From the UHGV virus genome UHGV-0128348: a stretch of DNA of 42,240 bases; one strand, 5' to 3'. Both the position numbers and the translations under genes were made by a program. This stretch comes from a virus. The notes below the pieces were generated by a model. The model was not told the origin of the DNA. It saw nothing but the letters and a program-made list of their open reading frames with translations, and did not search any database. The stretch's first letter is position 1, and each line of letters starts with the position of its first letter. This document shows positions 775 to 40,256 of the stretch, in pieces.

Positions 775-792
775 TTGTATCCTCACAGGTAT

Positions 793-819
793 AAAAAAAC
801 CGCCTAAGCGGTTTTCTTT
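793..819. terminator. bidirectional rho-independent terminator
   Basis: Hairpin AACCGCCTAAGCGGTT flanked by A-run upstream and T-run downstream. Confidence 0.55.
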
Positions 820-835
820 AATTAGCAAGAATGTA

Positions 836-1357
836 TCAACTACAAATCTCGCCCCATAGTTTAGAAAATTCAGTTCCACCATCATCAATAATGGTCATTC
901 CACTTTTACTTACATACCTTTTAAACCCAGCATATGCACCAAAGCTGTTTTTAGCATTTACTTGTCCGCATACATATCCGTCACGACCAACGATCTGATT
1001 TTTGAAGGTTGCAGATTCGGGGTCTTTTAATTCAGCCTTAACACTAGGGTTGCTTGCTGATATAACATTCATGTTGTTGTATCTTTTCTGCCTATCGTTC
1101 TCGCTAATTCTCATTAGCTCCTCATGGTTCTCATACCTCTCCCCCCACAAAGGGACCATTGAGTTAACAAAAAACAAGACAAATACAGAACCGAGAATTA
1201 TCAAAAGAGAAGCAATTTCCCCGCCAATCTTATCAATATATTTTAAAGGAATAACCAAAACAGCAAAAAGAAACACAATTGATATTGGTTGCCTTAACGC
1301 AATAATAAATGCTATAGCAAAAACTACTAAAGATAAAACGCCCAATATTTTTTTCAT
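836..1357 (-). CDS. AT-rich membrane protein of unknown function (moron between tail chaperone and tape measure genes)
   Basis: 173-aa ORF; N-terminal hydrophobic segments then a soluble C-terminal domain; low GC versus flanking tail genes; own downstream terminator. Confidence 0.55.
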   Translation of the reverse strand: MKKILGVLSLVVFAIAFIIALRQPISIVFLFAVLVIPLKYIDKIGGEIASLLIILGSVFVLFFVNSMVPLWGERYENHEELMRISENDRQKRYNNMNVISASNPSVKAELKDPESATFKNQIVGRDGYVCGQVNAKNSFGAYAGFKRYVSKSGMTIIDDGGTEFSKLWGEICS

Positions 1358-1431
1358 TTTTTATCCCAATAGGTAGAAAAGAACTAAAATCCTACCATTG
1401 GTTATGTAAAACTTCAGCTATCATTGTTTGT

Positions 1432-1737
1432 TCAAACTGATGCCGCGAGCAAAGCGGCCTCCAAGCCTGCAAAAGGATCGCCGCTGTCGCTTGCCTCGCC
1501 CTCTTCTGCGCTCCACTGAATCTGTGCGTCTTCAATGGTGACTTTACCGCCCTGTGCCCCGTACATCGCTGAAACCAGCTGAGCATTGAGAATATCGCCG
1601 CGAATATCGCCGATTGGGCTGATACGGTCGTATTCAGCCCACATCCGGAATTCGCCGACTGTCATGGTTTGTCGCAGTTCGCCCAGCGTGCGGCCCATCC
1701 GGAGCGCCAGCGCCATCAGGAACTGCATGCCAGGCAA
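1432..1737 (-). CDS. tail assembly chaperone frameshift extension (gpT-like), probably made as a G-T fusion by -1 frameshift
   Basis: ORF in the -1 frame relative to the upstream chaperone, overlapping its last codons (GCA AAG TAA); no ATG of its own (first codon TTG). Confidence 0.5.
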   Translation of the reverse strand: MPGMQFLMALALRMGRTLGELRQTMTVGEFRMWAEYDRISPIGDIRGDILNAQLVSAMYGAQGGKVTIEDAQIQWSAEEGEASDSGDPFAGLEAALLAASV

Positions 1738-1739
1738 TT

Positions 1740-2144
1740 TTACTTTGCTTTGGCATCATCCGCATCACGAATGAGATCAAGTGCCTGTTTCAACAACCGG
1801 GAATGGACAGGGCCATAAATTGCTTCAACCTGTTCGGTATCTTCGACGGTGAAAACGTACTGCAGGTCGGTATCCAGCAGAATATCAATGAAGAGTGTGA
1901 CATCTGCCCGCATCGTGCGGAACGCGCGTTCTGAAGGGGTCAGTTCTGGCACCTCTGGCGCTTCCTGCCCTTCCGGTGGTTTTGGTTGTTCCGGGCTGGC
2001 AATCCCCTGCCAGCGAATCCAGGCTTCAGCCGATGGTTCACGAATGATAACTTTGGCGTTTTCCCACTCCGGAACGGTGACTTCTTTTTTACGGAAACCC
2101 GCCATCGGGGCCAGCGCCAGCGCTTTAAGATTCTGTTTTGACAT
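1740..2144 (-). CDS. phage tail assembly chaperone (gpG-like)
   Basis: 134-aa acidic ORF between major tail and tape measure genes; canonical G position. Confidence 0.65.
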   Translation of the reverse strand: MSKQNLKALALAPMAGFRKKEVTVPEWENAKVIIREPSAEAWIRWQGIASPEQPKPPEGQEAPEVPELTPSERAFRTMRADVTLFIDILLDTDLQYVFTVEDTEQVEAIYGPVHSRLLKQALDLIRDADDAKAK

Positions 2145-2174
2145 TAAGTTTATCGCCGGTTTCCCGGCGCTCCA

Positions 2175-2879
2175 TTAACTGATGGTGACGGTGTGGTCAG
2201 CAGAGGTGATAACGGTGCCATCGGCATCTGTAACCACGCAGGAATAAACCCCGGCGTCACCTGATACTGCGCTGGACTTATTAAACGTTGCGCTGGTCTG
2301 CCCGCTGACTGTAGAAGAGCCTTTTTTCCAGACGTAGGTATAAGGCGCCGTGCCGCCCTGAACCACCACACCCATTGTCAGGGCGCTTCCGGCTGCTACC
2401 GTCTGCGATGCAGGAAGGTCTGTGGCAAAAGACAGTGCCGCAGCAGCATCAATATTTCCTGGCTTGCCTTTCAGGCGCAGGGAGAACGTTGCGGCCACTA
2501 CGCCATTGGTTTGAGAATCCCAGGTGTGCTGACGTACCTCAGCGCGCCACATGAACCCATTTCCAGACGGGAAAATAACCTTAAATCCATAAATGCCGTC
2601 GTTATCGTACGCTTTGCGAAGCGCATCCTGCGCCGGGTTGCGGTAGAAGTTACCAGAGAGGGACACTTCCGACGGGGCAGGAAGGCCGTTGATATTCTCC
2701 GTTTCTTCCGAGCATAGAGTGGTCACGTCAATATCGTTTTTGTGACCAGCGGTAAAGCTGGCCTGTTTAATGGTGCAACTCAGGTTGAGCCAGGTCGCTG
2801 TTTCAAGTTCATCCGCAGTGACCGGCACTGACGTAATCATTACTTTCGTTTTTTGGGCGCGTTCGTACAATGCTGACAT
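2175..2879 (-). CDS. major tail protein with C-terminal Ig-like domain
   Basis: ORF 2175..2891; probable start at second ATG (2879) preceded by GGAGG; C-terminal Ser/Thr/Gly-rich segment ...TAPYTYVWKKGSSTVSGQTSATF...GVYSCVVTDADGTV resembles Big_2/Ig-like. Confidence 0.65.
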   Translation of the reverse strand: MSALYERAQKTKVMITSVPVTADELETATWLNLSCTIKQASFTAGHKNDIDVTTLCSEETENINGLPAPSEVSLSGNFYRNPAQDALRKAYDNDGIYGFKVIFPSGNGFMWRAEVRQHTWDSQTNGVVAATFSLRLKGKPGNIDAAAALSFATDLPASQTVAAGSALTMGVVVQGGTAPYTYVWKKGSSTVSGQTSATFNKSSAVSGDAGVYSCVVTDADGTVITSADHTVTIS

Positions 2880-2895
2880 TGCAGCCTCCATAAAT

Positions 2896-2926
2896 GAAAA
2901 AACCGCCAGCGGCGGTCAGATTGGAT
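2896..2926 (-). terminator. rho-independent terminator/attenuator upstream of major tail gene
   Basis: Minus-strand hairpin ACCGCCGCTGGCGGT followed by TTTTTT. Confidence 0.45.
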
Positions 2927-2935
2927 TGGTTCCTG

Positions 2936-3283
2936 TCAGGCAATGACCGTTATTTCAAGCGTTGCCCGATGCAAGTGGGTTGTGGTGTCGTAGCCGGGGA
3001 TTTTGGTCACTTCGGTAGGTGAAAGCACTTCCAGCCGGGAAAGGGCCTCAAGCCGCAACGCCCTGGCCTCATCGTTAGTTTCTGCCCACACGTCTATCTG
3101 AATGTGCAGCGTCGATTCGGCCTGCCCACAGAAAACATCCCCGGCAACATCAGTCGGTATCGAGAAAATAATGTAAGGAGCGGCCACTGCGGGTAAATCG
3201 TCGCTGCCAAGCGGCACGACATACGGATAAACCCGCCCATCTGCCAGCGACGACAGCAGGGTATATATATCATCCTCTGTCAT
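2936..3283 (-). CDS. tail completion / tail terminator-like protein (DUF3168-like position)
   Basis: 115-aa ORF between HK97 gp10-like and major tail genes; call rests on gene order. Confidence 0.45.
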   Translation of the reverse strand: MTEDDIYTLLSSLADGRVYPYVVPLGSDDLPAVAAPYIIFSIPTDVAGDVFCGQAESTLHIQIDVWAETNDEARALRLEALSRLEVLSPTEVTKIPGYDTTTHLHRATLEITVIA

Positions 3284-3729
3284 TTCGCCAGCACCTCATC
3301 GATCGCCTTGTTCATTCTCTCCATCGCTACCTTTGCAGCCTCTTCCTGTCGGGTATCAAAAGCGGGGCGAACAAAAGGATGTGCCGGGGCCGTAGATGTT
3401 CCCAGCTCCACGAAGCGCCAGTAGAAAGCATTCCGCTTGTTGCTGGCCTTCATGGTGTTGTCGCTGTTCCCCGTTCGCGGATTAACGCCACGAATATGCA
3501 CCCCCGACGCGATTTCCCCACGGCGACGGCTTTTCTGGGTAACGACAACAACGTTTTTCTTCAGTTTTCCACTTTGCTCAGGAGCCCGATCAATCACTTC
3601 CTGCCGGAGGACTTCAGCCCCGGCCCGAGTAGAGTCCCGGAGGACTTTGTTGTTTTCGGCTTTGCTGAGGATTTGCAGGTCTCGGGCGATATCCTCTAAG
3701 CCGGAAAAATCCAGATTCACATCAATCAT
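3280..3729 (-). CDS. HK97 gp10 family tail component
   Basis: 149-aa ORF with ...FVRPAFD... motif and canonical position; 4-nt overlap with neighbours. Confidence 0.6.
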   Translation of the reverse strand: MIDVNLDFSGLEDIARDLQILSKAENNKVLRDSTRAGAEVLRQEVIDRAPEQSGKLKKNVVVVTQKSRRRGEIASGVHIRGVNPRTGNSDNTMKASNKRNAFYWRFVELGTSTAPAHPFVRPAFDTRQEEAAKVAMERMNKAIDEVLAK

Positions 3730-4067
3730 TTTTCGGTCCCCTGTTTGCAGAGAATTTCCAGCCGGGTACCTTTGCTATCTGGCACCGGAGGCCCGGTGAC
3801 ATTCAATGTCACTCCTTTGTAGGGACCGTTCAGGACAAGAAGCCGCGATGATGCCGAAATATCTTTGCGATATCGAACCCAGACACGAATTGTAGCATCT
3901 GCCCTTTCTGCTCCTGCTGTCAGGTTCTCTCGTCCACTGATTCCCTTTACCTCTGCCCAGATAGTGGCGCCGTCAGACCACTCTTCTGTTGGCTGACCAC
4001 TCGGTGTTCGCGTAGTAATAAAATTTCGGATGGTGATCCGATGCCGCATTGGTCCAATTTTCATCAT
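3726..4067 (-). CDS. head-tail adaptor / head closure protein (SPP1 gp16-like)
   Basis: 113-aa ORF with ...IRVWVRYR...LEILCKQ... pattern typical of head-tail joining proteins. Confidence 0.6.
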   Translation of the reverse strand: MMKIGPMRHRITIRNFITTRTPSGQPTEEWSDGATIWAEVKGISGRENLTAGAERADATIRVWVRYRKDISASSRLLVLNGPYKGVTLNVTGPPVPDSKGTRLEILCKQGTEK

Positions 4068-4076
4068 CCCCTCCGG

Positions 4077-4415
4077 CTAAACACCCATTTGAATTCGCCA
4101 GGGATTCAGCAACCAGCGTGCGGGTCCTGGGATATCAGGACTCAGATCATCCCCGCGGTTTTCATACAACCAGCCCACTATAAGAAGAACCGCGCTCTGA
4201 ATGGAGGGCGTGATGATAAGAGGACGATCGCCGGCACTTTCATTCTCAACAGCACTATCCAGAGCAGCCTGGTCAGCAAAAAAGCGTCGGTTAAGAAACT
4301 GCATAGCAGCATCCTCCGCAGCGGCAAGATACCCCTCCACCATTGTTTTATCAATTTCATCATCCAGCCTGAGATGTTCCATGGCTGTTTCAGTGTTGAT
4401 TACCGTCATAACCAT
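4077..4415 (-). CDS. gp6-like head-tail connector protein
   Basis: 112-aa ORF ...HLRLDDEIDKTMVEGYLAAAEDAAMQFLNR...; first gene after capsid module. Confidence 0.6.
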   Translation of the reverse strand: MVMTVINTETAMEHLRLDDEIDKTMVEGYLAAAEDAAMQFLNRRFFADQAALDSAVENESAGDRPLIITPSIQSAVLLIVGWLYENRGDDLSPDIPGPARWLLNPWRIQMGV

Positions 4416-4672
4416 TACCCTTTGGTTTCGGGGGCGCGGTTCATTTTGTTATCAGGGACTTCACCAACTATCGTCACCAGCCCGTTACCTTTGAGCTCGG
4501 CAGCACGTAAGCGAGAGACATGAAAAGGATCATCGGCGGGCGTCCTGAAAATATCGCCATCCATAAAACGCCGGACAGGCTGAACCTGAATAGTCCCGGC
4601 TTCAGTGGGTTCTGGCGCCACATTTTTACCGTCGGATACAGACGGTTCAGCCACATTTTTTCTGGCCATCAC
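4415..4672 (-). CDS. hypothetical small protein
   Basis: 85-aa ORF between major capsid and connector genes; no recognisable motif. Confidence 0.35.
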   Translation of the reverse strand: MMARKNVAEPSVSDGKNVAPEPTEAGTIQVQPVRRFMDGDIFRTPADDPFHVSRLRAAELKGNGLVTIVGEVPDNKMNRAPETKG

Positions 4673-4685
4673 AATCTCCTCAGAA

Positions 4686-4712
4686 AGAGAGGGCCGCTAA
4701 GCGGCCCTGAAT
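4686..4712 (-). terminator. terminator downstream of major capsid gene
   Basis: Hairpin GGGCCGCTAAGCGGCCC followed on the minus strand by a T-rich run. Confidence 0.45.
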
Positions 4713-4714
4713 TG

Positions 4715-5935
4715 TCAGCCGCCAGAAGCGGTTACATTACCGGTGACAAATGCTTCCGGACGATAAACTGCTAATGCCAGACGCTCTTCCGCACGAATGG
4801 TGACCATATTTTTAATAAAGTCATCTTCGTTCTCAGTGGAGAGCAGCACTTCGATATCCATGCGATCGAAGATTTGCGCAGCCATGTTGAAGGCTCCAGT
4901 CAGGAAGTTGTTCTGCGCCATAGCCTGAGTTTCCACAACAGGAAGACCCCAGATACGTGGAACACCACCATTGACCGGCTGCGCAATGATGTAGCGGCCT
5001 TCGTTATCTTTGGTCAACTCGATGCCGGCCCAGTCAATCGGGTTCAGTACAAAACCAGACGCCGGATATTCTGCAAGAACGGCCTGCAGAACAGCCAGGC
5101 GAAGACGGTCGATCGGCGTGGCGTTGGACAGGGTAAGCGCTGGAGCAAATTCTGTTGCCTGCGGCAGAATACCGAGGATATTCGCGCCGGTGCCATCGCC
5201 GCTCAACAATTGCTGCTCCTCTTTAAAGCGAAGACCATACTGAGCACGGCCATCGATATAACTGGCCAGACCGGGCGCATCGTCCAGGATCTGACGGGAC
5301 GCTTTAAAATAATGCGCAATGGTACGTACCGGCGCACTTTTCAGCTCAAACTTAATGTCTGATTTTGGCTTCAGGACACCTTCCGCCACAGCTGCAGCAT
5401 TATTGGTAAACCCCGTTTCCTGAACGAATTCAATACCGTTGGATGCAGTATTACCGGGGATCAGCAGGTTACGGATGGTCAGAGTGCGTTCCGGTGGTGC
5501 GATAATGCCCTGAACACGATCGGATACAACCAGACTGTTTGTTGCGCTCACGCCAGTGCCCGTAGTCGCCGGCACGTTCATAATATCTTTCTGTTCCAGC
5601 TTGACGCGGATGCTCTTACGGGCCGAACTGTCCATGCCTTTGAACTCTTCACTTTCGACCACCAGCTCACCGAGCGATTTTCGCTGTGCAGGTGCATCGT
5701 TCGGGCGGCGTGCACCTTTTTGCTCCAGCTCAGTGAGGCGTTCTTTCAGCTCGTTCATCTGATTAAGGCTTTCGTCCGTTCTTTGTTTCAGTTCCAGCGA
5801 AACGGTTTCTCCTGCCTCCATTTTTCTCTTCACGTCTTCACCGAAGTTTTTGACCTGATCAATCACCATGGTGAGCTGGGAGGAGATTTCGCCAATACTT
5901 TGTGGCTGATCGTCAGCCGATTTTTTCTGGTACAT
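4715..5935 (-). CDS. HK97-family major capsid protein
   Basis: 406-aa ORF; N-terminal coiled-coil scaffold-like delta region then capsid-like body; immediately downstream of prohead protease. Confidence 0.85.
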   Translation of the reverse strand: MYQKKSADDQPQSIGEISSQLTMVIDQVKNFGEDVKRKMEAGETVSLELKQRTDESLNQMNELKERLTELEQKGARRPNDAPAQRKSLGELVVESEEFKGMDSSARKSIRVKLEQKDIMNVPATTGTGVSATNSLVVSDRVQGIIAPPERTLTIRNLLIPGNTASNGIEFVQETGFTNNAAAVAEGVLKPKSDIKFELKSAPVRTIAHYFKASRQILDDAPGLASYIDGRAQYGLRFKEEQQLLSGDGTGANILGILPQATEFAPALTLSNATPIDRLRLAVLQAVLAEYPASGFVLNPIDWAGIELTKDNEGRYIIAQPVNGGVPRIWGLPVVETQAMAQNNFLTGAFNMAAQIFDRMDIEVLLSTENEDDFIKNMVTIRAEERLALAVYRPEAFVTGNVTASGG

Positions 5936-5944
5936 ATAAATCCC

Positions 5945-6631
5945 TTAGAGAATTTTTGGGAGAGAAAACTGGCTCAGTTGCTGGCGCATCGCCGCAATAG
6001 CCGCTTTGGTTTCGCCGTCTTCGCCCCCGGACTCACTCCGGTCAAGCAGATAGGACAGTCCGCGGGAGGCGACCGCGGCGGACTGACTTTTCGAGAAACC
6101 TGCCTCTCGCAGGAACTTCTCAAATTCAGGTAAGGAAGGAAGATCACCGTGTGACAGCTTCGACTTAATGACGTCAATACGCGCATCATCATTGGCCGGC
6201 ACGGTAACAATGGAGATTTCAACCAGGTCGAGCTTCGTTAAGGTGCGGATCCGGGTTTTCTCATCGTAATTTGACTCACGGACGTAATAGCCAATGGAAA
6301 GGCCGGTAATGGCACGGGTTTTCATGCCCCGCCAGGCGGTTTTCGCGTAGGCCGCGTCTTCAAGCCACAGGGCCCCTTCACCAAAAAGCCCATGTTTATC
6401 TTCTTTCAGGGTCGAGATGTCCCAGTTCCCGATGGGTTCGCCGGTGCGATGCTGCCAGAGAACCGGAAACGTTCTCCCCTTCGCCCGTGTTTCCTCAATA
6501 CTTTCGAGGAAAGCACCCGGCGCCACGACTTCGTTGTAACTATCCACCACATCGAAGACAGAACCGTACCCAGAAAAAAGGCCGTCATCATTGACGGCCT
6601 TAATGTCGAAGTCGAATGCCTTTACTTTCAT
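5945..6631 (-). CDS. HK97-family prohead protease
   Basis: ORF 5945..6652; likely start ATG 6631 overlapping portal stop (ATGA); lies between portal and capsid. Confidence 0.8.
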   Translation of the reverse strand: MKVKAFDFDIKAVNDDGLFSGYGSVFDVVDSYNEVVAPGAFLESIEETRAKGRTFPVLWQHRTGEPIGNWDISTLKEDKHGLFGEGALWLEDAAYAKTAWRGMKTRAITGLSIGYYVRESNYDEKTRIRTLTKLDLVEISIVTVPANDDARIDVIKSKLSHGDLPSLPEFEKFLREAGFSKSQSAAVASRGLSYLLDRSESGGEDGETKAAIAAMRQQLSQFSLPKIL

Positions 6632-7947
6632 GGCTGCGTTTTTCCGGTACATTCCGGCGTCTCCTCTGATTTAATGCCAAGCCATTCCCGCAATGCGTTT
6701 TTGGCCGATTCACTGTCGCCGGACTTGCCAAGCTGATCTATCGGCAGCAGGTTGGATTGAACGGTAAGTTGATCAGCGCCGGGTTTTGGCTGAAGGTTTT
6801 CTTTTTGCCGTGCTTCATTGCGAGTCATCAGACCATTCTGGGTCATCGTTGAGTAAAAAGCGGCACGGGCGGCGCTGTCGGCACGTAAGAGACCTTCGAT
6901 GGAAAACTCTGCGAAGTACTTATTTCTTTCTCCCGGAGCCAGGAGGCTTTTACGAATCGCCTGCTCAATACGGGTCAGCCATGGACGAAGTGAAAACGTT
7001 AAAAAGCCAATCAGCATCTGTTCGACGCCACTTCCCCACATTGTCTGCCCCTGGGCGCTGTGTCCAATCAACCCCGGCCATACTCTGAACCACCGACAAA
7101 TCTCTTCGATATTGAATGCCCTGGACTGCAGCATCTGGGCGTCTTCCGGGTTGAGGTCAACTGGCTGAAACTTCATTCCCGCTTCAAGAACCATCATTTT
7201 CCCGGTATTCATGGATCCAGAAAATTGTTCAACCATGCTTTCACGTACTTCATTGCGCTGCTCTTTTTTCAGGATCTGATCCATTGAGAGAACGCCGCTG
7301 GGCCGCATACCGTTTTTAAAAACTTTGGCGCTGGCTTCATCTGTTGCCATTGCCAGACCAAGTGTCTGTCGGGCATAACTGACAGGTGACAGGCCCATGA
7401 CACCATTGGTGCTGAACGCACGGATGTGCATGATGTCCCGTTCATCAATGTTTCGGGATGTACCTGAAGGCCAGTCACGGTAGGTATAAATTGGATCTCC
7501 GCTCTTGCTTAAATCAACCTTCATCCTTTCTGGCCTGAGCGGTACAAGCGAGGTAATACGCTTCCCGGTACGGTCGATTTCCGCGTAAGCATTCCCCCAT
7601 AAAAGAAGGCTGGCCATGATCATTTCCCAGAACTCCACAGCGGTCATGTCAGCATTCGGTTGATTATGTAGGAGCTCATAAAGCGGGTGATCATTTGCAC
7701 TCTGGCGACCATCAGCTGTTTTTTCGTAAAAACCAACAGGCAACGTCGCGATGGTTTCGGATAACAGCCTTACGCATGACCACACTGCCGATAACTGCAG
7801 GGCTTTATCAACCGTAACGGATTTGCCTGCTGCGGACTGCCCACCAGCATAAGCAACCCAGAATTCACCGTCTGTAAGTGAGATGGGTACGCCGAGCCAC
7901 CGGCGAACGGCGCTTTTTATCCGGCCTGGCTTCTTATCTTTATTCAT
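6628..7947 (-). CDS. HK97-family portal protein
   Basis: 439-aa ORF with portal-like sequence; follows terminase large subunit. Confidence 0.85.
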   Translation of the reverse strand: MNKDKKPGRIKSAVRRWLGVPISLTDGEFWVAYAGGQSAAGKSVTVDKALQLSAVWSCVRLLSETIATLPVGFYEKTADGRQSANDHPLYELLHNQPNADMTAVEFWEMIMASLLLWGNAYAEIDRTGKRITSLVPLRPERMKVDLSKSGDPIYTYRDWPSGTSRNIDERDIMHIRAFSTNGVMGLSPVSYARQTLGLAMATDEASAKVFKNGMRPSGVLSMDQILKKEQRNEVRESMVEQFSGSMNTGKMMVLEAGMKFQPVDLNPEDAQMLQSRAFNIEEICRWFRVWPGLIGHSAQGQTMWGSGVEQMLIGFLTFSLRPWLTRIEQAIRKSLLAPGERNKYFAEFSIEGLLRADSAARAAFYSTMTQNGLMTRNEARQKENLQPKPGADQLTVQSNLLPIDQLGKSGDSESAKNALREWLGIKSEETPECTGKTQP

Positions 7948-7953
7948 GGTGAC

Positions 7954-9690
7954 TCACACAATGATGGGATTACTGAAAAAGTCGTCGATATCGCCAGAAT
8001 CATCCTCATAGCCTTCGGAGGCACCGATTGCCATAGCGCCCGCTACAATGCCGTCGATACGCCCGGTACTTTTTTTCTTGGCAAAAATTCGGTTTTCTTT
8101 CTGATCAGCCTCCGTCACTGCTGAAGCCGCATTCCAGCGAAGACAAGGGTTCGTCCTGATGATAATGACGCTGTCATCAAGCAACTCTTCAAACAATTCG
8201 ATGGAGTGAGGCATCCACAGCCCGGAGTCTTTCGCTTTGTAATACCCTTGCCCATGAGGGATTAAGGGAACAGAAACAGATGCTTCCTCAAGCTCCGGCT
8301 CAAGATATTTAATGCGATACTGGTCGAAGGCGATGGCCTTGATATCAAACTTTTGAGTCAGATCTGCAATGCGCTGGGCAACAAAGCCGTATTTCACTGC
8401 TTTGCCAGGTGTGGTGTGTATGTGACCATCGCGCTCCCAGGCGTCATAAGGTACCCGGTCCGTTTTGGCCCGTTCCAGTAACGTATCTTTCGGGGTCCAG
8501 AACTCCACCAGCAACTTACGTTGTTTTGGAAAAAACAACGCCAGTGCCGTCAAATCACGCGATCCGGACAGGTCCAGACCGCCATAGCATTCCTCACCTT
8601 CCAGTTCATCTGGATCAAAGCTCTCCTCACAACCCATCCAGACATCACTGCTCATCCACGGATTAGCCGCGTCAACCCACTGACAGAAGTTAAGACGTCT
8701 GACGATGCTCTCTTTCGATGGCATCCCGCGGGCCTGAGTCACCTGCTCACGAAGATAGCTTTCTTCAAAGGTGTGACCCAGCGAAGGGTTAGCTTTCTTC
8801 CAGCAGGACTCATCCTTGAAAGGATCGTCTCCTTCATCCAGAGAACAAATGAAGGCAAAAAAGCTGTCATCTTCTATCGAACCGCCAGACACCTTTCGGC
8901 CGTATTCGTGATAGTCATAGCAGACGCTGGTTTTATCGTGCCCACTGTTGGTGATCATGAAAATCAGCGCCTGCCGACGACCTTTGGTACCGGCACGCAT
9001 CATTTCAACGACCTGATTGCTTTTATGCTCGTGAACTTCATCAATAAGAGCACAATGCGGTCGCGGGCCGGACTGCCCGTCATCTGAACTGATTGGACGA
9101 AAGAAGGAACCAGACTGAAGAAAAGCCAGGTTCCATTCCTTACCGGCACCACCTGATTTCTGAATACGTGCGGAAAGAGCTGGAGATTGATCCACCATCG
9201 CAACCGCATCACGGAAAAGGACCATTGCCTGGTCTTTCTTCGTGGCAGCGGCATAAACTTCAGCGCGTGCTTCTTTATCCGCAGTGAGACAGTAAAGTCC
9301 TATACCCGCAGACAGAGGGGATTTACCGGATCCCTTCCCGGACTCCACATAGACCATTCGGAACCGGCGAAAACCTCTGGCGTTTTTCCAGCCAAAAATC
9401 GAACCGACGATGAAGCACTGCCATGGCAGCAACACGAAAGGCTCGCCTTCGAAATCACCACCATTGAGCTTCAGAACTTTCGCAAAATAGTCAATCGAGC
9501 GTTGCGCCGCCTCAACATCCCAGTGCAGACCACGGGCATGGCATGACTTCAGGTCATTGAGATGGCGCTGGCATGAGTTACGGATGTCAGGACCAGCCAG
9601 TTCTTTGCCCGAGGTTACATCCATCGCATATTGGGTTGCAGGATCAACCGAAGAACTTGTCGAGCGTGTCCTCTTCGGGGTCTTCGCCAT
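7954..9690 (-). CDS. terminase large subunit
   Basis: 578-aa ORF; ATPase region (...VESGKGSGKS...) and C-terminal nuclease region; start could alternatively be the internal ATG at 9627. Confidence 0.85.
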   Translation of the reverse strand: MAKTPKRTRSTSSSVDPATQYAMDVTSGKELAGPDIRNSCQRHLNDLKSCHARGLHWDVEAAQRSIDYFAKVLKLNGGDFEGEPFVLLPWQCFIVGSIFGWKNARGFRRFRMVYVESGKGSGKSPLSAGIGLYCLTADKEARAEVYAAATKKDQAMVLFRDAVAMVDQSPALSARIQKSGGAGKEWNLAFLQSGSFFRPISSDDGQSGPRPHCALIDEVHEHKSNQVVEMMRAGTKGRRQALIFMITNSGHDKTSVCYDYHEYGRKVSGGSIEDDSFFAFICSLDEGDDPFKDESCWKKANPSLGHTFEESYLREQVTQARGMPSKESIVRRLNFCQWVDAANPWMSSDVWMGCEESFDPDELEGEECYGGLDLSGSRDLTALALFFPKQRKLLVEFWTPKDTLLERAKTDRVPYDAWERDGHIHTTPGKAVKYGFVAQRIADLTQKFDIKAIAFDQYRIKYLEPELEEASVSVPLIPHGQGYYKAKDSGLWMPHSIELFEELLDDSVIIIRTNPCLRWNAASAVTEADQKENRIFAKKKSTGRIDGIVAGAMAIGASEGYEDDSGDIDDFFSNPIIV

Positions 9691-11598: not shown

Positions 11599-11794
11599 CA
11601 CTGGCCCCTTTCGTGACTTCAGCACGGCGTTCTGCCGCGGCGACAGTAGCAGCGGCGTTTTCTTCGGTACGCAGCTGTTCGGCTTTGGCTTCCGCCTTAC
11701 TTGTTCCGCGAGCATGACCGATGCCAAACGCGCCAGCGATAGCGCCCAGAATGACAACCACCAGCCCCGCGATAGCTTCTATTCCCATGATCAT
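11513..11794 (-). CDS. candidate i-spanin (Rz-like)
   Basis: 93-aa ORF with N-terminal TM helix then charged Ala/Glu-rich helical region; directly downstream of endolysin. Confidence 0.5.
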   Translation of the reverse strand: MIMGIEAIAGLVVVILGAIAGAFGIGHARGTSKAEAKAEQLRTEENAAATVAAAERRAEVTKGASDVQEDVKRMGDDYVDRELRERFTRPSSR

Positions 11795-12420
11795 CCCACC
11801 AGTACCGATTTTGCTTTCAGGAAGCGGGCGCGTCGGTCATCAATGCCGTTTTGCCCGCCGTTGATAATCTGGGTCACCCGCAATAAATCTCCGGGGTATT
11901 TCAAACACCCATTTGATGTGTAAAACCATGCTGCGCTGCGTGCCGCATTAATATCTTTCTCCAACAACTCAGGGTTGCTGACTAAATCCAGTTTCAGTGC
12001 ATTACCGCACTTCATATAATTTTCGAGGAAGGTGATCCCGATAATTCCACGCCCTCGGTATTTCCAGCCATCGCCCGCAGCCTTATTGCCAAAACGATTG
12101 TTGTAGACGAGATTAGCGATCGCTCGTTGACGTTCGATCGGTAAAACCTTTTCGTAAGTTTTACGCCCTAAGGTGTTCGCCTGGTCTTGCGTGATGCGCT
12201 TCACCTTCACAAAACCAGCCAGGCCGGCAACGCTATAGTTAAAACTTTCGACCATCTGGGTAAATGATGTGCTTTCGTGTCCACACTGCGCTATGAACAT
12301 CGCCTGATCGAGTGGAGCTGTAATGCCGAATTCTTTCATCGCAGCATCAATATGCGGAAACCAGCGCGCAGCTAACCCGGCGCTGATACCAGCCGCCCTT
12401 TGAAATTGTGATTGGTTCAT
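11791..12420 (-). CDS. endolysin, glycoside hydrolase family 19 (chitinase-like lysozyme)
   Basis: 209-aa ORF with ...CGHES... and ...YRGRGIIGITFLENY... GH19-type motifs; lies in the lysis cassette. Confidence 0.75.
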   Translation of the reverse strand: MNQSQFQRAAGISAGLAARWFPHIDAAMKEFGITAPLDQAMFIAQCGHESTSFTQMVESFNYSVAGLAGFVKVKRITQDQANTLGRKTYEKVLPIERQRAIANLVYNNRFGNKAAGDGWKYRGRGIIGITFLENYMKCGNALKLDLVSNPELLEKDINAARSAAWFYTSNGCLKYPGDLLRVTQIINGGQNGIDDRRARFLKAKSVLVG

Positions 12421-12698
12421 CAGTGCCTCAGTGCATCAACCAGTCGCGCCACATTCCCCCTGAACCAGAGAACCGCGCCGCAGATAAGAATGTTAGCCAG
12501 CACCACCAGCCAGTGGGATGACTCGTACAGACCAAACAGGAAACGGAAAGGGATGCTGGCATAAACCAGCACCATGAGATAAGCCAGAACGGATATGCCA
12601 GGACGGTGTCTCGCACTACCTCGTTGGTAGAACATCAATGCCAGCACAATGACGGCGCAAATGACTGCATTAGCCAGCGCTGAAGGATCATTTACCAC
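12420..12698 (-). CDS. small membrane protein (holin/antiholin-like)
   Basis: 92-aa hydrophobic ORF between holin and endolysin with overlapping start/stop. Confidence 0.5.
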   Translation of the reverse strand: MVNDPSALANAVICAVIVLALMFYQRGSARHRPGISVLAYLMVLVYASIPFRFLFGLYESSHWLVVLANILICGAVLWFRGNVARLVDALRH

Positions 12699-13077
12699 TT
12701 GAACCTCCTCCCCGGAACCGGGTCAGCATATTGAACAAGCTATTTAGATCCTGGCTGTTGAGAAACGTCAGAACTTTGATGATAAGCGCTGATATTAATA
12801 CGGCTCCCAACGCATCAAGCGGACGGTCGCTGTAGCCAGTCCAGCTTGAAAGCTTGGAACCCACCAGACCGGCGCCCAGAACACCAACAATGAATGACGT
12901 CATAAAGTATGCCACCAGCTTACCGCGCGATATGTTAGCTGCCGTGGCCACGTAAAAAACCGCCCCGGCGAACGCACCAAATACCACGCCGTAATCTATT
13001 CCGGTAGCCAGACCGAACATGCTAGCCCCCATCAGGCCGCCGGCCGCAACTGAAGTACCAGAGACAGGATCGGACAT
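12688..13077 (-). CDS. holin
   Basis: 129-aa ORF with about three predicted TM segments and charged C-terminus; first gene of lysis cassette. Confidence 0.55.
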   Translation of the reverse strand: MSDPVSGTSVAAGGLMGASMFGLATGIDYGVVFGAFAGAVFYVATAANISRGKLVAYFMTSFIVGVLGAGLVGSKLSSWTGYSDRPLDALGAVLISALIIKVLTFLNSQDLNSLFNMLTRFRGGGSSGK

Positions 13078-15012: not shown

Positions 15013-16302
15013 TTACAACTCTCGGTAAGCTGGTTGCAAAGCTTCACACCATTGTCTTAAAGTCGAAGCTCTTCGTTTCTTAGTTTTATCGCTAAGCGAT
15101 AAGCACATATCAAACAAAAAAGGCTCCGCCGTTGTGGGATCTAGCTCTGAAAGATTTTTTGCCTGGCTCCATTGTATCCAAGCCCAACCACAATGACTGG
15201 CCTCAAAACCACGAGCCGCAATTCTTAATCTCTTTTCATGATCAGATTCAGCTAATTGTTGTCCCATTGCAGAGATTGAACCATTTTCATTAAGTAAACC
15301 TAGTATTTTACCTGCGTGTATATAGTACAGTATATGGCGAGTATCCAACCCTGTACTAATTAGATCGAGATATATCCCCTTCCATTTTAACTCTACAACT
15401 TTAAAAACTTGATCAATTAAATTTGCTTGGGGCACCTGATAACCGCCAACAACCTGGGCAGACATCTTAGCCAAAGCTGTTGAGTAAAACTCAGCATCCG
15501 TTTTTCGAACCGTTAATACAATCTCATCTGTATAGTTATTTTTCAATTCAAAACTTGAACTTGTATTAACAACAGAGTCAAATAAAGCCGAAAGCATTTG
15601 AACATCAATCTTATTATTTTTAATAAAACTAACTATATCACCCTTAAGACGAATCAGATCATTTAGCTCTTTTAATAACGGCTCTACTGTCTGCATTTTC
15701 TCTGCCTGAAAAGAAAGCACAAAAGATCCAGGGCGACCCGCCACTGGTCGCATCAAGTCCTTTTCATCAAAAGAGTTAATTATAGATGAATATAAGTTAT
15801 TGAAACATTCGAATAATTTAGAAACACCACTTAGTACTAATGGGTCCGTAGATGACTTAGTTTTCTCCACATGTATTTCATGCGTTGAAAACTCAATTGC
15901 CTTGCCTATTTTACCATTAGCTAAAACAGGCAGTACAGAGCTTATAAACAATCCACTTTGTGGCAAAGTCATGTTGTTAGATACTTCAGACGAATCTAAA
16001 GCCAATGCTACAACACGCTCATCCTCATAAAAAATATCTAACTGATAGTATTTCTTTTGTTCTTGGTGCATTAGAACGCTACGAATATCTATTCTTTTTC
16101 TTTCCAAAGATTCTAAGCGTTCAGCAGATATAGGAATGATGATCCACTTTTCGAAGTCATCAAAGTCCCCTAACCAATAAACAACAAAGAGACTATTTAT
16201 CTCATTAGTCACTGAGAAAAATTTTGGACCTTCGAAAAACTCATAGACATTTTCGTATTTTAGTTCACCAAACACGCTGTCTTTAAGGAAGATGTTACTC
16301 AT
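15013..16302 (-). CDS. hypothetical protein, 429 aa, second gene of AT-rich two-gene cassette
   Basis: Long ORF with low GC; 4-nt overlap with upstream gene; no Walker A or other motif I recognise. Confidence 0.65.
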   Translation of the reverse strand: MSNIFLKDSVFGELKYENVYEFFEGPKFFSVTNEINSLFVVYWLGDFDDFEKWIIIPISAERLESLERKRIDIRSVLMHQEQKKYYQLDIFYEDERVVALALDSSEVSNNMTLPQSGLFISSVLPVLANGKIGKAIEFSTHEIHVEKTKSSTDPLVLSGVSKLFECFNNLYSSIINSFDEKDLMRPVAGRPGSFVLSFQAEKMQTVEPLLKELNDLIRLKGDIVSFIKNNKIDVQMLSALFDSVVNTSSSFELKNNYTDEIVLTVRKTDAEFYSTALAKMSAQVVGGYQVPQANLIDQVFKVVELKWKGIYLDLISTGLDTRHILYYIHAGKILGLLNENGSISAMGQQLAESDHEKRLRIAARGFEASHCGWAWIQWSQAKNLSELDPTTAEPFLFDMCLSLSDKTKKRRASTLRQWCEALQPAYREL

Positions 16303-16745
16303 TTATCCAACCTCCTTATACAAACGAATTTGGCATGAACCTGAGATTCGTTGTAAAGCCATATTGTGTAGTGAGTTGAATCAGGAGCTCCAGTTTTTAG
16401 AATAACACCGTCATTAGCTGCAAACTCACCCTGAGCAACAAATCGCTCTCCAATACCATCAGGAAACTTATTAAAGGCATTAATAATTGAATTTTCATCA
16501 GTATAAACTGATACGCCATAACAACATTTTAGCTTATGCCCTTTAAATTTTTTTAATCGTTTAGGATTTTCATCTTTCATATTCAAAAAGCACTGATCCC
16601 CTGGAGGATTTGCCTTTGTAAGACGAAAGAATACACCTGAAGCATCTTGCGCTTCCTTAGGTGGAGTGCCCGCAGGGAAGTCCGCGGGAAACGTTAACGA
16701 TTTTTTATTTTTTGTCGTTTGCTGTGAGATTTGAGTCATGTCCAT
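16299..16745 (-). CDS. hypothetical protein, 148 aa, first gene of AT-rich two-gene cassette
   Basis: ORF preceded by about 300 bp of very AT-rich sequence; no signal peptide; no recognisable domain. Confidence 0.6.
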   Translation of the reverse strand: MDMTQISQQTTKNKKSLTFPADFPAGTPPKEAQDASGVFFRLTKANPPGDQCFLNMKDENPKRLKKFKGHKLKCCYGVSVYTDENSIINAFNKFPDGIGERFVAQGEFAANDGVILKTGAPDSTHYTIWLYNESQVHAKFVCIRRLDK

Positions 16746-17058
16746 AATCCAAGACGATTAACAGAAAAACTGCCAATCACTTTGGTAAATCAGGACAATC
16801 CGTTGGCATTAGATGCAATATAGCAACAAGTAAACACTTCATAAATGCCATTTGGTTATATAAAGAATGACTTAACAACTCCATTTGTTATAAATGCTAT
16901 ATATTGATAGTTGAGCATATTTAGGCACTAAATATGTCCAATTACTGTTAATTGGCTATGTATATATTGAACCTATTCCCCGAGCTCCACATAAGTTCCG
17001 TTTCGTGGAGCCGATACCGACGGTTTTGCACCGGAAGAATCTTCGCGGGAGTATGTAG

Positions 17059-17131
17059 TGCTGGTTGACGGAACTGAACCGCCTACATCCTGCTTACAAG
17101 GCAGGCGCTCTCCCAACTGAGCTAACCCAGC
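17059..17131 (-). tRNA. tRNA-like gene, anticodon UGU (Thr), with non-canonical features
   Basis: Minus-strand cloverleaf: acceptor GCTGGGT, D-arm GCTCAGTTGGGAGAGC, anticodon stem CCTGC/GCAGG with loop CTTGTAA, T-arm GGCGG-TTCAGTT-CCGTC; G6-A67 mismatch; G at position 58; no encoded CCA. Confidence 0.5.
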
Positions 17132-18171
17132 AAATTACGCATTTCCATGACCGTTTGATCAAATCGCTCGGTTTCCAGTTCAACACCGATTCCACTCCGC
17201 CCGAGCAGAGCAGCTTGCTTTAGTGTGGAACCCGAACCAGCAAAGAAATCAGCTACGACATCCCCTGGCCAACTGCTTGCAGTAATGATCTGCTGAAGCA
17301 TATCGGCAGGTTTTTCGCATGGGTGCTTACCTGGATAAAACTGAACCGGCTTATGTGTCCAGACGTCGGTATATGGCACCGTGACCGACACGCTAAATGG
17401 GCGCCGTAACCGGTAATACTCCTGCTGAAGTTCAGAATACTTCCGGTTAAGTGATTGCCAGGTAGCGACAAGCTGGTGGTGAGGTTTTCCCAGTTCGTTG
17501 CGTGAGTGCTTATCCATGGCGATTTTTTGAAACAAAGCCTGCAACTTCAAATAATCGGCTTCATTCGGCAGTTGCCACTGGCTAAGGCCAAACCAGTGGG
17601 AAACCATATTTTTTTTACCCGTGGCTTCTGCAATCTGGGCCGACGTCACGCCAAGAGATTCCCGGGCATCCCGGAAGTAAGAAATTAAAGGCGTCATGAC
17701 GTGTTGCTTTAACTCATTACACTTTGCGGCATATCCATCGTCTTTGGGCCTGTATGGCCCCTGATAATGGTCGGCAAAAATGATACGCTCAGTTGCGGGG
17801 AAATAAGCGCGTAAGCTCTCCTTATTGCAGCCGTTCCATCGCCCTGATGGCTTAGCCCAGATGATATGGTTGAGCAAGTTAAACCGCTCTCTCACCAACA
17901 GCTCAATATCCGCTGCCAGGCGTTGCCCACAGAAGAGATACATGCTGCCGGCAGGTTTTAACACTCGCCAGAACTGTGCCAGACAGCTATCCAGCCAACG
18001 TAAATAGTCCTCGTCCCCCTTCCATTGGTTATCCCAGCCGTTTGGCTTCACCTTAAAATAAGGCGGATCGGTAACAATAAGATCAATGGAGTTATCGGGT
18101 ATCGATGGGAGGTATTGCAGGCAATCAGCATTGATTAATTCAATACTGGATATTTTTACAGTATTTTTCAT
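17122..18171 (-). CDS. DNA N6-adenine methyltransferase (DPPY motif, Dam-like phage methylase)
   Basis: 349-aa ORF with N-terminal ...LIVTDPPYF... and C-terminal ...FFAGSGSTL... AdoMet motif; last 10 nt overlap the tRNA-like gene. Confidence 0.8.
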   Translation of the reverse strand: MKNTVKISSIELINADCLQYLPSIPDNSIDLIVTDPPYFKVKPNGWDNQWKGDEDYLRWLDSCLAQFWRVLKPAGSMYLFCGQRLAADIELLVRERFNLLNHIIWAKPSGRWNGCNKESLRAYFPATERIIFADHYQGPYRPKDDGYAAKCNELKQHVMTPLISYFRDARESLGVTSAQIAEATGKKNMVSHWFGLSQWQLPNEADYLKLQALFQKIAMDKHSRNELGKPHHQLVATWQSLNRKYSELQQEYYRLRRPFSVSVTVPYTDVWTHKPVQFYPGKHPCEKPADMLQQIITASSWPGDVVADFFAGSGSTLKQAALLGRSGIGVELETERFDQTVMEMRNLLG

Positions 18172-36473: not shown

Positions 36474-36680
36474 ATGCTGAGCCTCGATTGTGTTCCCATC
36501 TCAACTTATTGCAAAGAGACAGGCGAAACCCCTGATGCCATAAATAAGCGCATCCAGCGCGGCGTATGGCGTGAAGGGGTACAGGTGCTAAAGGTCGAAG
36601 GCGTTAAGGAAAGATGGATAGATCTTAGTGAGGTTGCAAAATGGGCTCGACAAAATCGCCTAAACTCCCGCGCGGCGTAA
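36474..36680 (+). CDS. xis: excisionase
   Basis: Small basic ORF directly upstream of and overlapping integrase; start at second ATG with GGAG RBS. Confidence 0.55.
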   Translation: MLSLDCVPISTYCKETGETPDAINKRIQRGVWREGVQVLKVEGVKERWIDLSEVAKWARQNRLNSRAA

Positions 36681-37831
36681 CGATCAGGAAACATAGTACT
36701 GGGGAAACTATCAATATTACCTTTACCTATAAGGGGGTGAAATGCCGGGAACCTTTATCAAACCTTGAAATTAATAGCAAAAACATTAAATACGCCGAGC
36801 GAACACTCGGCGAAATTCACAATAAAATTGAGCGGGGTACATTCAATTATGGTGAACACTTTCCCCGTTCGGCACGACTTAAAATATTTGGTAATTCTTC
36901 AACAGGAAAAACGGTAAAAAATTATCTCGATGAATATCTTGTAATTTGTGAAACGAGAAAATTATCTCCCTCAACAATCGGCGGATATAAGAAATGTTTA
37001 AATGCTCTGGCATCACTTCACGTTTTTCCTGCCAGCGAATTAACACCTGCTGCTTTAAAAACATGGATCCAGAGTCAGAAAACGACATTAAAGACGATTA
37101 GGAACCAACTTTCATTCCTACGCTCAGCACTGGATGAAGCTGTGACTGATGGTGTATTGCAGATTAACCCTGTTTCACTGGTGACAGCCTCGCGCTACCA
37201 GAGTAGTAAAACCGAGGATGAAAGTGATTATATTGTTGATCCGCTTTCGCCAGCCGAGGTTGAAGCGCTTTTGCATGCCGCAGGTAACAAGCAGTGGGAA
37301 AACATATTCCGCTTTGCAATTGAAACCGGGCTACGTAGTTCTGAACTCTGCGCCCTCCGTTGGCGCGATATCGACTTTATCGGCAAAACAGCGCATGTGC
37401 AAAATGCCAGCGTAGTGGGGGTAATTAAGGGCACGAAAACTAAAGCTGGAACACGTAAAGTTGAGTTAACCGAAGAAGCCTTGTATGCCCTGACTTCTCA
37501 GAAGCCTTTCACCTTTATGAAAGATGCAACGATCTTTGAGGATCCTAAGACAGAAAAACCATGGGCGGGTGCCGATGCGATAAGAAAGAAAGCCTGGGTG
37601 CCAACTTTACGTAAAGCTGGGATCAGGTACCGTAATCCATACCAGACCAGGCATACGTTCGCGACCCGACATATAAGTCGTGGCGCTAACCTGTTCTGGC
37701 TGGCATCACAGATGGGACATAAAGGGCCAGAAATGTTGTTCAGGCATTATGGACGCTATCTGAAGGAGTATGACGGCAACACTGAAAAACGACCCAAGCT
37801 GGTCAGCGGTGGAACCTCAAAGGAGCCGTAA
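36641..37831 (+). CDS. int: tyrosine integrase (lambda Int family)
   Basis: 396-aa ORF with C-terminal catalytic region ...RHTFATRHISRGANLFWLASQMGHKGPEMLFRHYGRY...; adjacent att core. Confidence 0.85.
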   Translation: MGSTKSPKLPRGVTIRKHSTGETINITFTYKGVKCREPLSNLEINSKNIKYAERTLGEIHNKIERGTFNYGEHFPRSARLKIFGNSSTGKTVKNYLDEYLVICETRKLSPSTIGGYKKCLNALASLHVFPASELTPAALKTWIQSQKTTLKTIRNQLSFLRSALDEAVTDGVLQINPVSLVTASRYQSSKTEDESDYIVDPLSPAEVEALLHAAGNKQWENIFRFAIETGLRSSELCALRWRDIDFIGKTAHVQNASVVGVIKGTKTKAGTRKVELTEEALYALTSQKPFTFMKDATIFEDPKTEKPWAGADAIRKKAWVPTLRKAGIRYRNPYQTRHTFATRHISRGANLFWLASQMGHKGPEMLFRHYGRYLKEYDGNTEKRPKLVSGGTSKEP

Positions 37832-37889
37832 AGGATCCGCAGCAAAACGCTAAATTTTTTTATCATTGTTTATCATGATGTTATTAAGT

Positions 37890-37925
37890 TTCGGGCGCGG
37901 GTTCAACTCCCGCCAGCTCCACCAA
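37890..37925 (+). other. tmRNA (ssrA) 3'-end fragment = prophage att core
   Basis: TTTCGGGCGCGGGTTCAACTCCCGCCAGCTCCACCA matches the enterobacterial ssrA 3' end as I recall it; upstream sequence is not ssrA. Confidence 0.7.
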
Positions 37926-37955
37926 ACATTCATTCATGATGCATCATGAACCTTA

Positions 37956-37993
37956 AAAAAGCCTGCAACTTCAACGAGTTGCAGGCTTTTTTG
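37956..37993 (+). terminator. rho-independent terminator (probable native ssrA terminator)
   Basis: Hairpin GCCTGCAACT-TCAACG-AGTTGCAGGC flanked by A6 and T6. Confidence 0.65.
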
Positions 37994-38090
37994 TTGCATG
38001 TGTGGTCATGATCTCTGTATGAATCTTGAGCATTATGTATCTTGTTTTGCACCGCGTTGCCTGAACGCTAAAAAAACAAGGTGCAAAAAC

Positions 38091-39338: not shown

Positions 39339-39339
39339 T

Positions 39340-39984: not shown

Positions 39985-40256
39985 GTAGTTGCTGCATAGT
40001 GTCGGGATGTAACGAACCGATTAAACTCTGAAACCGCCTGATGTATAGTTGGCTTGGAGCCAATAGCAGATATGAATGAATCGATTGCAACAGAATCTCC
40101 GTCTGATCAAGACGTCTTCAAATTCTTGAGGTTATAGTGTGTGGTGCTCAATGAATCGTTGCGCAGGAAATTTGACCTGCGGACCATTTCAGCTGCAGCA
40201 AAAACAGGTAGCGTATCAAATACAGATGAAATCAGGCATTATGCAATGGAGACAAG

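Follow-up and report, generated by a model that had tools for sequence, protein, structure and literature searches.

A moron slot in front of the tape measure protein (TMP) gene is textbook phage biology, and HK97 gp15 is, to our knowledge, the only cargo of that slot with a demonstrated function. Here, we investigated the same slot in a stretch of 42,240 nt from the UHGV virus genome UHGV-0128348, referred to below as the window, in which a gene for a 173-aa protein (ORF173) lies between the tail assembly genes and the TMP gene of an HK97-like siphophage. In an HK97-like Klebsiella prophage, a replaceable moron cassette carries ORF173 as its cargo. The slot and the concept are known, and the cargo is not gp15; it comes from a very large uncharacterised family. 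By analogy with gp15, we give about an even chance to the reading that ORF173 is a prophage-expressed, inner-membrane-anchored, periplasm-facing exclusion factor that does the work of gp15 without being its homolog.

HK97 gp15 was identified by experiment as an inner-membrane superinfection-exclusion protein that blocks entry of HK97 and HK75 in a manner dependent on the incoming tail (Juhala et al. 2000 and Cumby et al. 2012, summarised in PMC3594210). The same source restates the moron definition of Juhala and Hendrix, which asks for an extra gene between genes that are otherwise adjacent or differently spaced, a deviating base composition, a terminator and a promoter of its own, and expression from the repressed prophage. 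The order in HK97 is GT, gp15 (“moron product”), terminator, and TMP, at a spacing nearly equal to that in the window. ORF173 sits in the identical slot, from the G/GT chaperones to TMP, and the likeness extends to the short leader, the small AT-rich open reading frame (ORF), the hairpin terminator, the TMP ribosome-binding site, and the membrane-anchored product. The proteins themselves differ. While the 62 residues of gp15 make up one transmembrane (TM) helix and a short coiled tail, the 173 residues of ORF173 are predicted to form three TM helices and a stalk that carries a globular domain in the periplasm, and BLASTP between the two gave an E value of 0.86 over 7 residues, i.e., no homology. 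What ORF173 shares with gp15 is location (the slot between the chaperones and TMP, followed by a terminator) and not descent; exclusion is demonstrated for gp15 and proposed for ORF173.

Other exclusion proteins offer a looser comparison. Like ORF173 in its predicted topology, TP-J34 Ltp, P22 SieA, and T4 Imm/Sp are phage- or prophage-encoded proteins of the cytoplasmic membrane that present their active part to the outside, and they act after adsorption, as is proposed for ORF173. Sister alleles of ORF173 in the same slot are true lipoproteins, a further likeness to lipoprotein exclusion proteins. Ltp targets the tape measure protein. However, ltp lies between int and the repressor gene and sieA in the P22 immunity region, whereas ORF173 lies in the T-TMP slot, and Ltp is made of helix-turn-helix-like repeats, whereas the ORF173 domain is predicted to be an alpha-beta4-alpha roll. 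ORF173 was set apart from Ltp, SieA, Imm, and Sp by its non-matches in Pfam, PADLOC, and NCBIfam together with the descriptions of these proteins, rather than by direct sequence comparison. The SNIPE defense also acts at tape-measure-mediated entry (PMC13190303), and the mEpimmI exclusion lipoproteins demonstrate that lipoprotein genes within structural modules can exclude phages (PMC11893012). Homology to mEpimmI cannot be claimed, as no mEp phage was among the tblastn matches to the lipoprotein allele. The tail-assembly-inhibition defenses Tai and Tab were rejected as identities: Tai relates to the J tail fibre, and Tab, an 83-aa protein encoded between the terminase genes, resembles no characterized protein or domain in sequence.

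The moron gene ORF173

The original prediction held that a moron with an AT-rich 173-aa membrane-protein gene, an AT-rich upstream region, and a bidirectional terminator interrupts the tail chaperone and TMP genes, and our analysis bears out each of these features (coordinates in Table 1). ORF173 is the sole ORF that we counted in the gap between T and TMP; the plus-strand ORFs at 831-998 and 1002-1376 were disregarded as antisense shadows of this AT-rich gene. Its base composition deviates from its surroundings, at 36.2% GC (32% at third codon positions) vs 58.8% in T and 52.4% across the structural genes at 1432-9690. Homology searches returned two PHROGs of unknown function and homologs at 55, 51, 48, and 40% identity. 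ORF173 is a real gene under purifying selection, because dN/dS is low (0.10-0.20 in comparisons with alleles of 91-99% nucleotide identity), AlphaFold models the protein with confidence, and these distant homologs retain its length and architecture.

The terminator lies between the ORF173 stop codon and the TMP ribosome-binding site (GAGGA at 781-785), ~15-20 nt upstream of the latter. Its hairpin core, AAAACCGC-CTAA-GCGGTTTT at 796-815, is flanked by an A-run and a T-run, so that termination is possible in both directions. The minus-strand RNA hairpin has a folding energy of -20.3 kcal/mol (z = -4.4), and none of 200 shuffles folds as well. ORF173 is thus followed by a terminator, yet this terminator is common to other cargos on the same TMP allele and is therefore a feature of the slot, not of this cargo.

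A promoter proper to ORF173, located in the leader, is putative: a scan for consensus sigma-70 sites upstream of ORF173 on the minus strand gave no match. Reading by eye, we found an extended -10 candidate, TGgTAGGAT (minus strand, 1397 down to 1389), that is conserved with the lipoprotein allele L009; leader positions 1387-1431 are common to the window and this allele and are not found with other cargos. Two types of leader were seen, TGgTAGGAT with the 3-TM and lipoprotein forms of the domain and GTGACA-17 nt-TAGGAT with the gp15-like and Cys-rich alleles. Because TAGGAT is present in all compared leaders (window, L009, L008/L014) at a similar distance from the start codon, the sequences suggest that a weak promoter is conserved as a property of the slot and not of the individual cargo.

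Cargo exchange between the T and tape measure genes

Relatives with G/T and major tail genes of 87-93% DNA identity to those of the window have other genes in the slot, as expected of a moron. Homology to these relatives breaks at ~808-828 and 1437-1448, and with L001, L066, and L032, it reaches into 808-828. The slot of Klebsiella phage ST13-OXA48phi12.2 holds a 94-aa Cys-rich secreted protein, and that of Klebsiella phage 1 LV-2017 holds a 77-aa gp15 homolog with one TM helix (49% identity, E 8e-18). Of the 24 matching GenBank phage records, 22 lack ORF173, and in 21 of these, G/T and the major tail gene align across the slot boundary.

From IMG/VR, we fetched 80 loci whose T protein has 89% identity or more to that of the window; the slot could be delimited in 77. 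It varies in length from 277 to 2029 nt. Every slot examined is AT-rich. Simple slots have 33-40% GC and longer slots with extra genes 42-50%; those above 40% hold extra anti-repressor-type genes or insertion sequences (IS). The cargo is gp15-like in 31 of the 77 (one of them IS-disrupted), a lipoprotein form of the ORF173 domain in ~19, the 3-TM form seen in the window in 11, the 94-aa Cys-rich protein in ~8, and a 148-aa lipoprotein in 3. KilA-N/anti-repressor-like genes and other secreted proteins, checked against Pfam, occur as single cases. The loci hold at least eight alternative cargos. About 40% of the slot alleles carry the ORF173 periplasmic domain, and gp15-like and domain-bearing cargos never share a slot. 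A hairpin stands just before the TMP start in all five slot sequences inspected.

ORF173 itself is missing from 66 of the 77 loci and is thus not a tail component conserved in all relatives, the outcome that would have spoken against a moron; it is an extra gene between genes that are elsewhere adjacent or differently spaced. The same TMP allele (97-100% identical N-terminus) is paired with at least five different cargos; tail assembly therefore cannot depend on ORF173. In Klebsiella prophages, the slot is a hot-swap site. The position of ORF173 within the tail operon and the stable TMP linkage of its 3-TM homologs might have indicated a tail-assembly or virion component of the G/T-TMP module. 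This is scarcely credible, as phages with the same T and TMP allele (97-99% identity) have the 94-aa secreted protein, the 148-aa lipoprotein, or a gp15-like protein in its place, its base composition is foreign, and a three-TM inner-membrane protein is unexpected in a tail. A structural or assembly role of ORF173 is effectively excluded.

Some slots contain more than one gene. At locus L045 (IMGVR_UViG_2857980404_000009), a 326-aa IS5-like transposase on the opposite strand splits the gp15 homolog in the T-TMP slot. In the longer slots (L040, L046-L048, L024, L051, L028, L033, L067, and L076), the gene for the small secreted protein is preceded by a KilA-N or Ant/BRO-like anti-repressor gene. 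Two unrelated lineages (L135, L150) likewise have anti-repressor-like genes upstream of the domain gene that precedes TMP, and Paracoccus phage Pkon1 (L162) has a KilA-N gene near its domain gene. The pairing of anti-repressor-like genes with domain or secreted-protein genes may not be accidental. Outside Klebsiella, we found the slot in one of 5,426 complete E. coli genomes, that of strain W409 (chicken, China; NZ_CP122499.1, 1520308-1520965, locus L160), with 98.9% identity and the same G-T-ORF173-TMP order. Either a Klebsiella-type prophage crossed genera or the taxonomy of this strain is doubtful.

Predicted structure of the ORF173 protein

AlphaFold2 modeled the whole chain at a mean pLDDT of 85, and its helices match the hydropathy segments, in line with the membrane protein of the original prediction. 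The three predicted TM helices are followed by a stalk of one long helix and a periplasmic domain. A conserved LRQPIS turn and a VNSMxPLWGERY exit motif stand in or just after residues 1-66 in the alignment. Residues 117-172 adopt an alpha-beta4-alpha fold in the domain model (pLDDT 93.5, pTM 0.81). The general motifs of the domain are LKDPxSAxF and CGxVNAKNSFGxYxG, both of which ORF173 has along with the Cys pair and the predicted fold; D112, P113, S115, G131, V133, N134, K136, N137, S138, G140, and G144 are invariant in the alignment, and C130 and C172 are at least 90% conserved. Across 149 family representatives, the Cys pair is kept in 146, and a signal peptide, lipobox, or TM segment precedes the domain in 142; in ORF173, the three hydrophobic helices take that place.

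The predicted topology has the N-terminus in the cytoplasm and the C-terminus in the periplasm. This is supported by the charge count of the MKK start and the KYIDK loop, by the soluble domain that precedes TM1 in longer relatives, and by the family-wide Cys pair and export or anchor segment. Sister alleles in the same slot are lipoproteins with lipoboxes LAGC, LSGC, and INAC attached to the same domain. That a 3-TM anchor and a lipobox bear one domain in one slot suggests that display in the periplasm is what matters.

The best fold matches of the domain are cystatin, PepSY (YpmB, YpeB), and NTF2/VirB8-like rolls. However, identity to these is 3-18%, no motif is shared, and scores are in the generic-fold range, so the matches are no evidence of homology or shared function. 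A BFVD structure search brought up one lipoprotein of a Gordonia phage and, apart from it, only uncharacterised phage proteins. Sequence searches of the PDB with the single sequence and with a profile gave chance matches only.

Distribution and genomic context of the domain

A profile search of 1.84 billion cluster representatives (50%-identity clusters) found the domain in 14,843 clusters at E≤1e-3 and in 7,686 at E≤1e-10. Seven PHROGs share it, six of them at E≤1e-9 and all of “unknown function”; those named are 16400, 2320, 35207, 36625, 38187, and 21797. ORF173 gave nothing significant against Pfam and NCBIfam, and when 10 and later 145 family representatives were scanned with Pfam, the matches were all to N-terminal zinc ribbons, never to the domain itself. 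RefSeq/PGAP labels family members “hypothetical protein,” and our literature and motif-string searches gave no account of the family or its TMP linkage, the motif strings returning only KdpD papers. Most members of this KDPxSAxF/CGxVNAKNSFGGYxG family are short secreted proteins or lipoproteins, or have a zinc ribbon and one TM helix. The 3-TM and stalk anchor of ORF173 differs from these and marks a subfamily-level group, in which some members add a cytoplasmic domain at the N-terminus.

We sampled the genomic context of seven family members; all are borne by phages or prophages, and four lie beside a TMP gene. The 51%- and 40%-identical 3-TM homologs (L158, L159) are upstream of TMP on the same strand. 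Directly upstream of TMP and on the same strand are also the domain genes of P0015 and, from IMG/VR, of L122, L128, L131/133/137/139, L135/136/138, L144-147, L148, and L150. The long downstream ORFs scanned in L122, L128, L131, L135, L148, and L150 best match differing TMP PHROGs (28, 1506, 1107/1538, 25966/24, and 2854), giving six further lineages in which the domain gene adjoins TMPs of different best PHROG families. On the opposite strand beside TMP, we found the lipoprotein gp16 of Gordonia phage Kita, flanked by the tail chaperones and TMP (hhalign probability 98.5%, E 1.9e-15), a match that recurs in ~60 Gordonia phage records; p57 of Paracoccus phage Pkon1, in which PG_binding_1 is joined to the domain; and P0023. 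In Klebsiella phage KpLi5, Pseudomonas phage AUS531phi (domain and SPOR), and Escherichia phage Fraca, the gene lies between the tail-tip genes K and I, and the L116-119 domain genes are probably also between K and I, judging from their spacing after the TMP end.

These K-I positions bear on a narrower idea, that ORF173 would act in the periplasm to inhibit a cell-wall hydrolase or peptidase brought in by the TMP or by a K-type protein of the tail tip. It would be a specific mechanistic form of exclusion, and T4 Spackle, which acts on the gp5 lysozyme, offers a comparison. In AUS531phi, and also in KpLi5 and Fraca, the relative comes right after an NlpC/P60-type tail protein K, the neighboring TMP of L128 has a transglycosylase region, and some family members are fused to peptidoglycan-binding modules. 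The cystatin-, PepSY-, and NTF2/VirB8-like fold would suit an inhibitor, at the generic level of match noted above. We consider this form quite unlikely.

Other relatives are linked to lysogeny genes. In P0016 and P0018, the domain gene lies immediately downstream of a CI-type Peptidase_S24 repressor gene and co-oriented with it, an arrangement for which λ rexAB behind cI is the established analogy; in P0021, it is next to the integrase gene, and in the P2-like SEN4/SEN5, it is between ogr and int. By analogy, the repressor-operon and opposite-strand placements argue for expression of family genes in lysogens. A domain-bearing protein of 266 aa, annotated “putative membrane lipoprotein,” is encoded next to a divergent transcriptional regulator in Escherichia phage Cyrano (L155, 101404-102204) and PhiR41_1, and this copy is likely to be expressed in lysogeny. 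The 108-kb phage that carries the L155 gene also encodes ParB and is possibly a phage-plasmid.

The same placements weigh on the question of whether ORF173 is a late function, transcribed only with the tail operon, that, for instance, keeps progeny phages from injecting cells which are lysing or have been infected before, or that modulates lysis. For T5 Llp, blocking of progeny injection into such cells has been proposed. ORF173 is co-oriented with the late operon, its leader is short, and the consensus promoter scan is empty. However, the strong terminator right after ORF173 fits an independently transcribed unit best, the relatives beside TMP in the Gordonia, Paracoccus, and P0023 phages are read from the opposite strand, other relatives stand downstream of CI repressors, and the lysis genes of the window lie elsewhere (holin at 12688-13077; a Glyco_hydro_19 gene, presumably the endolysin, at 11791-12420). 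We regard a late function as very unlikely.

A possible role in exclusion

We infer the ORF173 promoter, expression in the lysogen, topology, exclusion activity, and target, and the following model combines them. ORF173 would be transcribed on its own in the lysogen, where the terminator would stop read-through into the repressed TMP gene; late transcription of the structural operon would have to cross the terminator at 793-818. The protein would enter the inner membrane by its three TM helices with the N-terminus inside, and a helical stalk of ~40 residues would hold the small, disulfide-bonded domain in the periplasm near the peptidoglycan. There, the domain may interfere with the envelope crossing of incoming siphophages with related tails, i.e., with genome entry mediated by TMP or the tail tip. 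The net effect would be gp15-like exclusion by an unrelated protein.

Several observations favor this model. ORF173 has the same slot and architecture as the proven exclusion gene 15 of HK97, domain cargos alternate with gp15-like cargos and never occur with them, and the domain is repeatedly linked to TMP in unrelated phages. The change of anchor around a constant domain also counts for it, as do the export signals and Cys pair found across the family and the phage-borne fusions to PG_binding_1 and SPOR, which speak for a place outside the cytoplasm. Two relatives stand behind CI-type repressors and one beside an integrase. Furthermore, the same prophage carries other AT-rich defense-like genes (PD-T4-10-like), and an Abi_alpha/PDC-S47 gene lies just past the integrase.

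Other observations weigh against it. The slot also takes unrelated cargos (KilA-N/Ant-like), and position alone therefore cannot fix function. ORF173 matched none of the families in PADLOC-DB v2 at E≤1, our literature and motif searches found no phenotype or expression report for any family member, and the lack of a consensus sigma-70 site upstream is compatible with late-only expression. The residues D, P, S, N, K, N, S, and G are invariant from Proteobacteria to Actinobacteria, and a conserved host ligand or a structural role fits such invariance better than recognition of fast-evolving phage proteins does. The ligand is perhaps peptidoglycan, given the phage-borne fusions of the domain to PG_binding_1 and SPOR.

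This last point is why the hydrolase-inhibitor idea above is kept, and it leads to a different role, in which ORF173 would be a lysogenic-conversion factor of the envelope whose domain binds a conserved ligand such as peptidoglycan and alters tolerance to, e.g., host lysozymes, bacteriocins, type VI secretion system effectors, or stress, the tail-gene slot being merely a permissive insertion site. The cross-phylum motif, the fusions, the ~14,800 clusters that carry the domain, and the unrelated cargos of the slot all agree with such a role, and the morons Bor, Lom, and SodC act on host fitness (PMC3594210). On the other hand, all seven sampled members are in phages or prophages, with four of the seven beside TMP, and the domain alternates with a proven exclusion gene in one slot without co-occurrence. 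We consider an envelope factor of this kind unlikely and prefer the exclusion factor for ORF173.

More tentatively, the domain family as a whole might be a large group of prophage-expressed exclusion proteins, linked to TMP from Proteobacteria to Actinobacteria, that block the passage of the genome through periplasm and cell wall by way of TMP or the tail tip. We hold this extension to be possible but doubtful. If it is true, the repeated return to the TMP slot would follow from keeping the exclusion gene linked to the tail, which determines its specificity. The present analysis shows that the slot is a swap site in Klebsiella prophages and that the same domain is found beside TMP or behind repressors in very distant phages. 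An exclusion factor would be a widespread first-line barrier to siphophage entry and a tool for dissecting how TMPs take DNA across the periplasm, and it would bear on K. pneumoniae phage therapy, as prophage-borne exclusion narrows host range. Should exclusion not be its function, the domain still represents an envelope protein that prophages carry very commonly.

Other features of the window

The left 10 kb of the window is the late operon of an HK97-like siphophage on the minus strand. Genes for the portal, protease, major capsid protein, and head-tail connectors lie between the terminase and major tail genes, as assigned by position and the annotations of relatives. The T frame is probably made as a G-T fusion through a -1 frameshift, by analogy with HK97, whose record annotates GT as “translated due to a -1 frameshift.” The nearest GenBank records are Klebsiella pneumoniae prophages and phages, and in view of its integrase gene, the window is most probably an integrated prophage.

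Table 1. Features of the window around ORF173 and of the prophage that carries it.
Feature	Coordinates	Strand	Evidence and remarks
TMP, N-terminal 257 aa	4-774	-	Pfam TMP_3 E 1.4e-52; phrog_339 E 1.7e-112; continues beyond window end
Intrinsic terminator	793-818	.	8-bp stem, 4-nt loop, A-run on one side, T-run on the other
ORF173, moron gene, 173 aa	836-1357	-	phrog_16400 E 1.9e-42; phrog_2320 E 3.7e-27; both of unknown function
Periplasmic domain (predicted), residues 109-173	839-1033	-	Motifs LKDPESATF and CGQVNAKNSFGAYAG; Cys130/Cys172 pair
Stalk (predicted), single long helix, residues 68-108	1034-1156	-	AlphaFold2 secondary structure
Three predicted TM helices, residues 1-66 (2-20, 24-39, 46-66)	1160-1357	-	AlphaFold2, hydropathy, and alignment
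AT-rich leader of ORF173	1358-1431	-	74 nt, 29.7% GC; weak GGGA Shine-Dalgarno
Tail assembly protein T frame	1432-1737	-	Pfam Phage_tail_T E 5.8e-18; stop codon is right edge of variable slot
Tail assembly chaperone G	1740-2144	-	Pfam Phage_TAC_1 E 1.7e-43; PHROG 344
Major tail protein	2175-2891	-	
Large terminase	7954-9690	-	Start of late operon
Integrase	36641-37831		

The window has other defense-like islands as well. Two genes lie in a second AT-rich island at 15013-16745 (minus strand, 36-37% GC). One encodes a 148-aa protein that matches PADLOC PD-T4-10_A (E 1.7e-11), and the other a 429-aa protein with a match to Pfam DUF6575 (E 3.7e-38) and a weak one to PD-T4-10_B (E 1.5e-05). The island is probably another prophage-borne defense moron. 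Beside it lie a phage tRNA-Thr(TGT) gene (17058-17131) and a type II-like DNA methylase gene (17122-18171). Past the integrase gene, a second, truncated-looking integrase ORF (37998-778) has only Arm-DNA-bind_3 and Phage_int_M, and an AT-rich Abi_alpha gene at 40257-41048 matches the PADLOC candidate PDC-S47 (E 5.6e-36). The region 36641-41048 may be the remnant of a second integrative element or a defense islet at the prophage end.

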